Program-made: the position numbers and the translations under genes
Sequence record: OQ025076.1
Length of the DNA stretch: 64,000 nt
Reading direction: 5' to 3' (one strand)
Source: Escherichia phage vB_EcoP_YF01
Notes under the pieces: model-generated
What the model was told of the DNA's origin: nothing
What the model saw: the letters and a program-made list of their open reading frames with translations, nothing else
Database searches by the model: none
In this document: positions 32,791 through 33,354 of the stretch, in pieces
Position numbering within the stretch: the stretch's first letter is position 1
Layout: the number at the start of each line of letters is the position of its first letter

Positions 32791-33354
32791 TTAGTAAGAC
32801 ACGTCACCACTTGAATGGGACATGTTGCTCTTGACGAAGTAGCAATACTTGCCAAGACCTTCATTAATTTCTTGAAGCATACTCTGATCGACAGGGTAGG
32901 TGGCTAAATCACCATCAAACTCATCCATCTTCTCAATAATACACATCAAAGTCATGCACATATCAGAGAGCATACCATCCATGTCTAGATCAGCATTACC
33001 CTCTGAGAACCAAGCATGGGAGAGATAGTTAGCTGCTGTAGCATCCACTTTAACACAGTGGTAACGCATACGTTCAGCAATACGATCTCCTACCTGTCGT
33101 GCGTAATCTTCCAGCTCATCAAACATACCATGAACACCCTGAAATCCTGCACCAGAGACGTTCCAGTGGTAGTTTTTAGCTTTGATATGCAAGAGTTCCA
33201 TGTTAGCTTGTAAGCAGCTCAGGATGTGTTCTAGGCTGTTTCCGCTAATCATACCCTGCATTGTTTCAAGGCGAGAGATTGATAGGTCGGACCGGTCTAA
33301 CACGCTATAGCTGTCACGACCAATCTCAGGTAAATCAAAAACATTCTTATGCAT
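32791..33354 (-). CDS. Dps/ferritin-like protein
   Basis: Dps signature LHIKAKNYHWNVSGAGFQGVHGMFDELED; ATG 33354 with GGAG SD (track start 33402 is TTG). Confidence 0.6.
   Translation of the reverse strand: MHKNVFDLPEIGRDSYSVLDRSDLSISRLETMQGMISGNSLEHILSCLQANMELLHIKAKNYHWNVSGAGFQGVHGMFDELEDYARQVGDRIAERMRYHCVKVDATAANYLSHAWFSEGNADLDMDGMLSDMCMTLMCIIEKMDEFDGDLATYPVDQSMLQEINEGLGKYCYFVKSNMSHSSGDVSY

Follow-up and report, generated by a model that had tools for sequence, protein, structure and literature searches.

The GenBank annotation for gene 67 of Escherichia phage phiEco32 (ABY52868), dating from 2008, reads "DNA-binding protein; member of the Dps family"; the orthologs in other Kuravirus phages, e.g., SU10 CDS67, are the same gene. 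The DPS domain and the core status of the gene were noted in 2014, when thioredoxin, the DPS-domain protein, and CDS68 were found among the few genes common to all five C3 phages then sequenced (PMC4281155), and the presence of Dps across Kuravirus phages was noted in 2021 in the Privateer paper (PMC7881722). The Dps identification of gene 67 is already known and not new. Dps proteins are also encoded by Salmonella phage 7-11 (gp73), Proteus phage Privateer (gp068), Cronobacter phage GAP52 (gp52), and Aeromonas phage LAh_8 (gp125), all of them orthologs of gp67 with 31% to 45% identity and the same ligands. As here, these genes lie in a neighborhood with thioredoxin and gene-68-like sequences; their products, however, are shorter (146 to 156 aa), and the genes often adjoin those for NrdD or NrdG.

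Beyond these relatives, Dps genes have been reported in Lactobacillus myophages, gut "Gratiaviridae", and 36 further gut phages (PMC8008677), and our search of phage records also recovered them from Streptomyces phages and cyanophage S-SRM01. The proteins from Lactobacillus plantarum myophages, Streptomyces phages, "Gratiaviridae", and S-SRM01 resemble gp67 in being ferritin-like, and phage Dps of this kind have been proposed as oxidative-stress protectants (PMC8008677). Nevertheless, they share at most 30% identity with gp67, belong to other lineages and genomic contexts, and lack a gene-68-like partner. Our literature search found no phage Dps that had been studied by biochemistry or genetics. 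The present analysis makes modest additions to this picture: a gene 68–Dps bicistron under the putative promoter P68, a basic tail in some lineages versus an acidic extension in others, an altered pore motif, and a widespread mis-annotation of gene 67 as "integrase".

Gene 67 in a phiEco32-type genome

The window analyzed here, 64,000 nt of Escherichia phage vB_EcoP_YF01 (OQ025076.1), belongs to a phiEco32-type lytic podophage with an elongated "C3" head. Over the 1.4 kb around gene 67, nucleotide identity to Escherichia phage phiEco32 (Kuravirus, Gordonclarkvirinae) amounts to 98.8%, and about 70 other podophages of E. coli and Shigella match the same segment at 95% to 99%. The gene and its start region comprise the following features:

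32791..33354, minus strand: gene 67, predicted Dps-family mini-ferritin (187 aa, 21.2 kDa, pI 4.7, net charge −15)
33364..33367, minus strand: Shine-Dalgarno sequence GGAG of gene 67, 9 nt upstream of the ATG, within the 3′ end of gene 68
33347..33676, minus strand: gene 68 (109 aa; PHROG 10984), overlapping the start of gene 67 by 8 nt

The reading frame extends from an ATG at 33354-33352 to a TAA at 32793-32791, exactly the ORF delimited in the preliminary description, which had left the strand, here minus, unstated. The ATG overlaps the stop codon of gene 68 (ATGCATAA) and is shared by the GenBank CDS phi32_67 of phiEco32 (564 nt), and in phage SU7, the equivalent of the Shine-Dalgarno site carries a ribosome-binding site annotation. 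A 203-aa, TTG-initiated ORF in the mechanical list was rejected as an over-extension of gene 67 that lacks a comparable start signal. With phiEco32 gp67, the product shares 99.5% amino acid identity, equal length, and the neighbors 66 and 68; the two proteins are one residue apart, a methionine in phiEco32 being replaced by V18 here.

Gene 67 is under strong purifying selection. Comparison with the 82% to 84% identical orthologs of ECBP2 and SU7 yielded a dN/dS of ~0.05 (pS ~0.71, pN ~0.11) for the whole gene and ~0.03 (pN 0.06 to 0.07) for the core; the first 44 codons, with a pN of 0.26, form a faster-evolving extension. A chance ORF is excluded by this dN/dS together with the Pfam, PHROG, and PDB matches described below and the homologs in other phages.

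Homologs of gp67 were found in 136 and, in a second search, 131 of 50,697 phage records. The preliminary description had called a Dps-like gene in a lytic phage uncommon, which holds across phages at large but not within its own lineage, where the gene is universal. In many Kuravirus records (e.g., IME267, ES17, and KBNP1711), the gene is labeled as a tyrosine or serine "integrase". We consider this label an annotation error, given that the only Pfam match is Ferritin and the fold is that of Dps.

Predicted fold and ferroxidase center

The sole Pfam match of gp67 is PF00210 (Ferritin-like domain), at 31.1 bits against a gathering cut-off of 24.5 and with residues 55-108 aligned, and among PHROGs, the protein matches phrog_3636, "DNA binding protein" (E = 2.6e-55). 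When gp67 was compared with all PDB sequences using phmmer, nearly all matches were Dps proteins, with ~30 Dps structures at E ≤ 1e-4, the best being Mycobacterium smegmatis MsDps2 (PDB 2z90, 4m32-4m35; E down to 2.6e-9, residues 51-176). MsDps2 shares with gp67 the fold over residues 51-176 as well as identical ferroxidase ligands, but the two proteins are only 22% to 25% identical, gp67 carries an extra 44-residue N-terminal extension, and the gate residues D138 and H141 of MsDps2 align with S158 and Q161 of gp67. An exhaustive phmmer search of 1.84 billion representative sequences produced 620 homologs at E ≤ 1e-3 but only 13 at E ≤ 1e-10, indicating that gp67 belongs to a small, divergent clade; a word-indexed homolog search gave close relatives only.

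A monomer model of gp67, generated by AlphaFold2 from an alignment of 15 homologs, has a pLDDT of 80 overall and mostly above 90 in the core (10-residue block means of 82 to 96). The helices, at residues 41-65, 72-98, 107-112 (short), 125-150, and 154-177, are predicted to form a four-helix bundle with the BC helix, diagnostic of Dps, in the B-C loop. In a Foldseek comparison with the PDB, Dps dodecamer subunits made up 50 of the 50 matches listed, including Bacillus anthracis Dlp-2, B. subtilis MrgA, and Staphylococcus aureus Dps, with rmsd values down to 1.1 to 1.5 Å and TM scores up to 0.91. The Dps/ferritin-like identity proposed in the preliminary description, which had looked to profile and structure searches and to a predicted ferritin-like four-helix bundle, is borne out by the agreement of Pfam, where PF00210 lies above its cut-off, with the PDB, AlphaFold2, and Foldseek results, the model containing the bundle as well as the BC helix.

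The 24-mer ferritins and bacterioferritins (Ftn, Bfr) have the ferritin-like superfamily and PF00210 in common with gp67. Membership in this group was rejected: the gp67 model lacks the C-terminal helix E and has the BC helix, and Dps accounts for all 50 structural matches listed. In addition, the di-iron center of Ftn and Bfr is intra-subunit, whereas the ligand pattern of gp67 is of the inter-subunit Dps type. The putative ligands fall within one segment:

33073..33168, minus strand: ferroxidase-center segment, codons 63-94 (H63, W64, H75, D79, D90, and E94)

All six residues are invariant across the 15 homologs, at identities down to 47%, and align with H51, W52, H63, D67, D78, and E82 of E. 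coli Dps and with H31, W32, H43, D47, D58, and E62 of Listeria Dps in an alignment of 154 sequences. The numbering of the Listeria entry used here reproduces the published ligand numbers. Within the alignment, the columns of H63, H75, and D90 are kept in 154 of 154 sequences and those of W64 and E94 in 151, and the position of D79 is occupied by Asp or Glu in 126. The peptide that had been quoted as lying near the ferroxidase site, LHIKAKNYHWNVSGAGFQGVHGMFDEL, corresponds to residues 55-81 and indeed holds H63, W64, H75, and D79, with D90 and E94 following just after. At the level of sequence, the ferroxidase center of gp67 is intact, and by sequence and predicted structure, the gene 67 product is a divergent mini-ferritin of the Dps family with its catalytic ligands in place.

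E. coli Dps (b0812; PDB 1dps) has counterparts for all six ligand-region residues of gp67, and its fold matches (6b0d, 6gcm). The two proteins are nevertheless only 39% identical, over just 41 aa, and the Lys-rich N-terminal tail is found in the E. coli protein only. Consistently, gp67 falls below the cut-off of the enterobacterial Dps equivalog NF006975 (NCBIfam), scoring 34.5 bits versus 114. Recent capture of the host dps gene is ruled out by this low identity over a short stretch and the sub-cut-off score.

At the start of helix D, the D-x-x-T-x-D motif of the ferritin-like three-fold pore reads Y153-P-V-D156-Q-S158 in gp67. Asp is the majority residue at both outer positions of the alignment (104 of 154 sequences at position 153 and 74 of 154 at position 158); Y153 and S158 align with Listeria D125 and D130, and D156 sits where Thr is usual. 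Other acidic residues near the motif are D149 and E162. The non-Asp residues Y153 and S158 could slow the entry of iron. Helix C contains a stretch rich in Met and Cys, DMCMTLMC, which we set aside as a candidate soft-metal site, its i/i+3/i+4 spacing apparently fitting ordinary positions in the bundle core.

The N-terminal extension

A faster-evolving part of the protein precedes the bundle:

33223..33354, minus strand: N-terminal extension of gp67, codons 1-44, specific to the Kuravirus/Suseptimavirus group

This extension is not basic, its net charge being −2 over residues 1-40 and −3 over residues 1-45. It contains a conserved S-x-x-R-L-E/D-x-M motif and, at residues 18-37, a helix that AlphaFold2 predicts with low confidence. 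A flexible basic tail is the mark of the DNA-binding subset of Dps proteins, not of all Dps. No Lys/Arg-rich tail for DNA binding is present at either end of gp67, the last 10 residues carrying a net charge of −1. The lineages differ in this respect: the orthologs in 7-11, Privateer, GAP52, and LAh_8 lack an extension of the gp67 type, and their N-termini form short basic tails (+2 to +3), comparable to the Lys-rich tail of E. coli Dps (+3). Judging from these charges, direct DNA binding by the present version of gp67 is unlikely, and the label "DNA-binding protein", a transferred family name, is one that gp67 does not obviously deserve. The missing basic tail of Kuravirus gp67 makes a chemical rather than a physical mode of protection probable.

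Gene 68 and the nucleotide/redox module

Gene 68 has no match in Pfam or NCBIfam, and a PDB sequence profile search with gp68 gave nothing credible, the top match being a designed beta-propeller. Its AlphaFold2 model, with five strands and a C-terminal helix, is of low confidence (pLDDT 53). A tblastn search detected gene-68-like sequences in 130 phage records, whose host genera and counts equal those of the Dps clade. In Privateer (37% gp68 identity), GAP52, LAh_8, and two metagenomic Kuravirus-like contigs, the gene 68 homolog lies directly upstream of the Dps gene and abuts or overlaps it. The two contigs encode Dps proteins with 53% to 56% identity to gp67, and in one of them, gp68 is 73% identical. 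In phage 7-11, the gene 68 homolog adjoins the thioredoxin gene, and the Dps gene adjoins that of ThyX. On this comparative evidence, gene 68 is a conserved, lineage-restricted partner of the Dps gene. The Dps gene itself belongs to the core set of prolate "C3" podophages.

Three neighbors with Pfam matches frame the pair:

34365..34898, minus strand: dCTP deaminase (gp72; PF22769, E = 3.5e-34), the upstream neighbor in the module
32265..32540, minus strand: thioredoxin (phiEco32 gp65; PF00085, E = 4e-13), a conserved module neighbor
31593..32249, minus strand: ThyX, flavin-dependent thymidylate synthase (gp64; PF02511, E = 4.5e-43)

Read along the minus strand, the genes are dCTP deaminase, three small tandem paralogs, gene 68, Dps, gene 66 (encoding a 59-aa hydrophobic protein between the Dps and thioredoxin genes), thioredoxin, and ThyX. 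Gene 67 is thus situated between dCTP deaminase and thioredoxin/ThyX, in line with the replication/nucleotide module to which it had been assigned at the outset. This nucleotide/redox module is kept in Kuravirus, Grimontviridae, Lahexavirus, and metagenomic relatives, and most relatives carry an anaerobic ribonucleotide reductase (NrdD with or without NrdG) in the same block; none is annotated in phiEco32.

Transcription and protein expression

Two candidate signals flank the unit formed by genes 68 and 67:

33716..33723, minus strand: AATGTATA, agreeing with the gp36 promoter consensus and situated 40 nt upstream of gene 68
32754..32782, minus strand: 11-bp stem-loop followed by AACUUAUUUAU, beginning 9 nt past the stop codon of the Dps gene

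Promoters recognized by the phage sigma factor gp36 have a single-element consensus, tAATGTAtA, with the transcription start 6 to 8 bp downstream (PMC8948821). Upstream of the gene 67/68 unit, the strict consensus TAATGTAT is absent, but the relaxed core AATGTATA is present. The middle promoter P68 of phiEco32, which depends on gp36 and gp79, was used in 2025 for in vitro transcription and for the cryo-EM structure of an open complex (PMC12276001). Since the promoters are named after the downstream gene, as in the case of TAATGTAT at position 12273, which lies just upstream of the gene 26 homolog and matches the late promoter P26, we take the AATGTATA site to be P68. Genes 68 and 67 look like a bicistronic unit of the middle class.

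The stem-loop downstream of gene 67 has a folding energy of −15.9 kcal/mol, with a z-score of only −1.55, and in ECBP2 and SU7, the stem is kept while the loop differs. Weak termination is one possible function, RNA processing or stabilization another; a strong intrinsic terminator was rejected as statistically unsupported at this z-score, even though the stem is conserved.

[quoted passage not shown] The sample had been PEG-precipitated only, and DNA polymerase and thioredoxin were also present in it. Hence, the detection demonstrates expression rather than packaging, and we did not accept the SU10 proteomics as proof of a virion protein.

Discussion

We favor, as probably correct though far from certain, a role for gp67 as an iron- and peroxide-detoxifying mini-ferritin cage of the replication phase that replaces an un-inducible host Dps. 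What the argument builds on is documented above: the reading frame, its family and fold, the conserved ligands, the selection against change, the shared gene order, and the expressed protein. The dodecamer, its ferroxidase activity, and the physiological role are what we infer, as is any part played by gene 68. As in all Dps proteins of solved structure, twelve gp67 subunits would assemble into a hollow shell with two ferroxidase centers at each two-fold interface, H63 and H75 (plus D79) being contributed by one subunit and D90 and E94 by the other. H2O2 is the preferred oxidant of Dps proteins. At the gp67 centers, Fe2+ would be oxidized, preferentially by H2O2 (or by O2), and stored as a ferric mineral, whereby both Fenton reactants would be removed and Fenton chemistry limited during the synthesis of phage DNA and dNTPs. 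The flavoenzyme ThyX, whose gene is located two genes from the Dps gene here, leaks H2O2 in air. Protection by gp67 would probably be chemical, through scavenging of iron and peroxide in trans, and not by coating of DNA.

As for timing, genes 67 and 68 would be co-expressed from the gp36/gp79-dependent middle promoter P68 during phage DNA replication. In the host, dps is regulated by OxyR-sigma70 or by sigmaS. Transcription dependent on either sigma factor is inhibited by gp79 (PMC12276001). With host dps dependent on the sigma factors that gp79 blocks, an infected exponential-phase cell would be unable to raise its own Dps, and the phage would supply the replacement. Phage 7-11, on the other hand, keeps Dps yet lacks gp79 and host shut-off (PMC8948821), which speaks against the replacement argument as a general one. 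A simple antioxidant role also leaves unexplained why gene 68, the more conserved of the two genes, is so tightly paired with Dps.

Several other functions deserve consideration. That gp67 binds or condenses DNA, coating or compacting replicating phage or host DNA in the manner of E. coli Dps, is suggested by the "DNA-binding protein" annotation in phiEco32 and many relatives, by the short Lys/Arg-rich tails of the 7-11, Privateer, GAP52, and LAh_8 orthologs, which compare with the +3 tail of E. coli Dps, and by the position of gene 67 among replication genes. We nevertheless regard this function as unlikely: the annotation is a family name passed on by transfer and not the outcome of an experiment, gp67 is acidic in its extension, its last 10 residues, and as a whole, and in several Dps proteins of solved structure, lack of a mobile basic tail goes with an absence of DNA binding. 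Equally, there seems to be little prospect that gp67 buffers or donates iron for the synthesis of dNTPs, supplying host NrdB or the NrdG/NrdD of relatives, or that it scavenges O2 and H2O2 to guard the oxygen-sensitive glycyl-radical enzyme NrdD, with thioredoxin as the redox partner. Such a link would account for the Dps gene adjoining or lying near NrdD or NrdG in GAP52, LAh_8, and the two metagenomic Kuravirus-like contigs, for its adjoining an NrdD-like fragment in Privateer, and for the constant presence of thioredoxin, ThyX, and dCTP deaminase in the same block. However, the phiEco32-type phages, this window included, keep Dps without an annotated ribonucleotide reductase, the adjacency may reflect nothing but a conserved order of middle genes, and we know of no Dps that acts as a dedicated iron donor.

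In a further reading, the Dps cage and its lineage-restricted, obligately co-transcribed partner gp68 would make up a specialized two-protein device of C3 podophages, e.g., a capsid- or genome-associated cage, rather than a generic antioxidant. Although we think this rather unlikely, a cage of that kind would explain the Privateer ortholog in CsCl-purified virions, the Dps–prohead-protease fusions of uncultured phages, and the universal retention of the pair down to ~31% Dps identity. Another reading, which strikes us as quite improbable, is that the cage, possibly with gp68, is carried by the virions of prolate C3 podophages, on the capsid or inside it, and acts on the packaged or incoming genome. 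Here, the evidence consists of the Privateer ortholog identified by mass spectrometry in virions purified through CsCl step and equilibrium gradients (PMC7881722), the core status of Dps in all C3 podophages (PMC4281155), and uncultured phages in which Dps-fold domains are fused to proteins named "prohead protease". Against it, the SU10 proteome attests to expression and not packaging for the reasons given above, a cryo-EM and mass spectrometry study of SU10 names gp20-24 as the ejection proteins and leaves Dps unmentioned (PMC9509320), and gene 67 is of the middle, not the late, class. The Privateer detection itself has simple alternatives, given that dense, iron-loaded Dps could co-band with phage in CsCl and that the Privateer protein could be carried over by DNA through its basic tail. 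Finally, we find it hardly credible that gp67 acts non-catalytically, hijacking host Dps or another host factor and disturbing Dps assembly or nucleoid compaction through its extension or together with gp68. The lineage-specific extension with its conserved motif and the conserved partner gene 68 are circumstantial points in its favor, but the catalytic ligands do not vary and selection on the gene is strongly purifying, a pattern that a purely structural decoy would not need, and the identity to host Dps, 39% over 41 aa, is too low for mixed cages to be likely.

The "integrase" label could wrongly bar strictly lytic Kuravirus phages from therapy pipelines. A Dps with intact ferroxidase ligands is a core, strongly conserved, and highly expressed middle gene of therapeutic-candidate coliphages, namely, Kuravirus and its relatives. 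The reason for which a 77-kb lytic phage carries its own putative scavenger of iron and peroxide, and the role of gene 68 beside it, would offer insight into how phages manage oxidative and iron stress.

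Genes adjoining the Dps gene

Upstream of the Dps gene, on the same strand, lie counterparts of several phiEco32 genes:

33347-33676 (-), gene 68
33749-33958 (-), gene 69, 69 aa
33958-34167 (-), gene 70, 69 aa
34167-34364 (-), gene 71, 65 aa
34908-36278 (-), gene 73, a 456-aa ORF (437 aa with the phiEco32 gene 73 start), the phiEco32 product being annotated as hypothetical

Conservation is higher in gene 68 than in the overlapping Dps gene, with identities of 92.7% versus 82% in the relative ECBP2 and 73% versus 53% in a metagenomic relative. Profile searches with its product detected no family, and structure prediction gave no confident fold; the low-confidence model suggests a small five-stranded beta-barrel followed by a C-terminal helix. 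The three tandem small ORFs corresponding to genes 69-71, placed between the putative middle promoter P68 and the dCTP deaminase gene, are alike in length, in their Lys/Arg-rich middle and in their C-termini (...VIYY, ...KVHY and ...KVYY), and by sequence look like paralogues. The gene 73 counterpart matches PHROG 12715, 'nucleotidyltransferase' (E = 8e-246), and scored 21.8 bits against the Pfam PolyA_pol head domain, slightly under the cut-off of 23 bits. Its product is possibly an enzyme of the CCA-adding or poly(A)-polymerase type within the replication module.

Elsewhere in the window, a promoter-type motif overlaps a mechanically called gene start:

12273-12280 (+), gp36-type promoter consensus TAATGTAT, overlapping the mechanically called ATG of ORF 12275-16738

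As called, this ORF encodes 1487 aa, whereas gene 26 of phiEco32 encodes 1473 aa; therefore, its true start is probably located ~14 codons downstream of the called ATG, with TAATGTAT representing the late promoter P26.

Dps genes and domains in other phages

In relatives, the module that holds the Dps gene also encodes an anaerobic ribonucleotide reductase (NrdD, in some cases together with NrdG). The phiEco32 annotation lists no ribonucleotide reductase. NrdD/NrdG or NrdD-like sequences are found in the relatives' loci L008 (4457-6589), L007 (1-1628 and 2951-3442), L011 (6661-8522), L013 (6570-8129) and L006 (5398-5694). Proteus phage Privateer carries just a 98-aa NrdD-like fragment, encoded directly after the Dps gene; this fragment may be a 'spare part' protein of the glycyl-radical type.

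Dps-fold domains are also embedded within proteins of uncultured Caudovirales (290-763 aa; BFVD entries A0A6J7XDU5, A0A6J7WPK9, A0A6J7WIS1 and A0A6J5N5R9) that are annotated as 'Prohead protease' or as 'DNA-binding protein Dps'. This arrangement hints that some phages bring a Dps domain into the prohead, following an encapsulin-like cargo logic.

Database records

The closest database record, PP350014.1 ('phage PH444'), is 99.0% identical at the nucleotide level and 100% identical in the Dps protein. At 114,913 bp, compared to ~75-78 kb in all other Kuraviruses, and with the nucleotide match falling in two separate pieces, this record is possibly a chimera or a concatenation produced during assembly.

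In more than 15 Kuravirus and Suseptimavirus GenBank records, such as MZ398243 (IME267), NC_070984 (ES17), KF981730 (KBNP1711), PQ805429 and PV018827, the Dps gene (32791-33354 (-) in the window) is labelled 'integrase' or 'putative integrase'. The product contains only a ferritin-like domain and adopts the Dps fold, and we reject the integrase identity; the name is an annotation error, which could falsely imply a temperate lifestyle for these phages.
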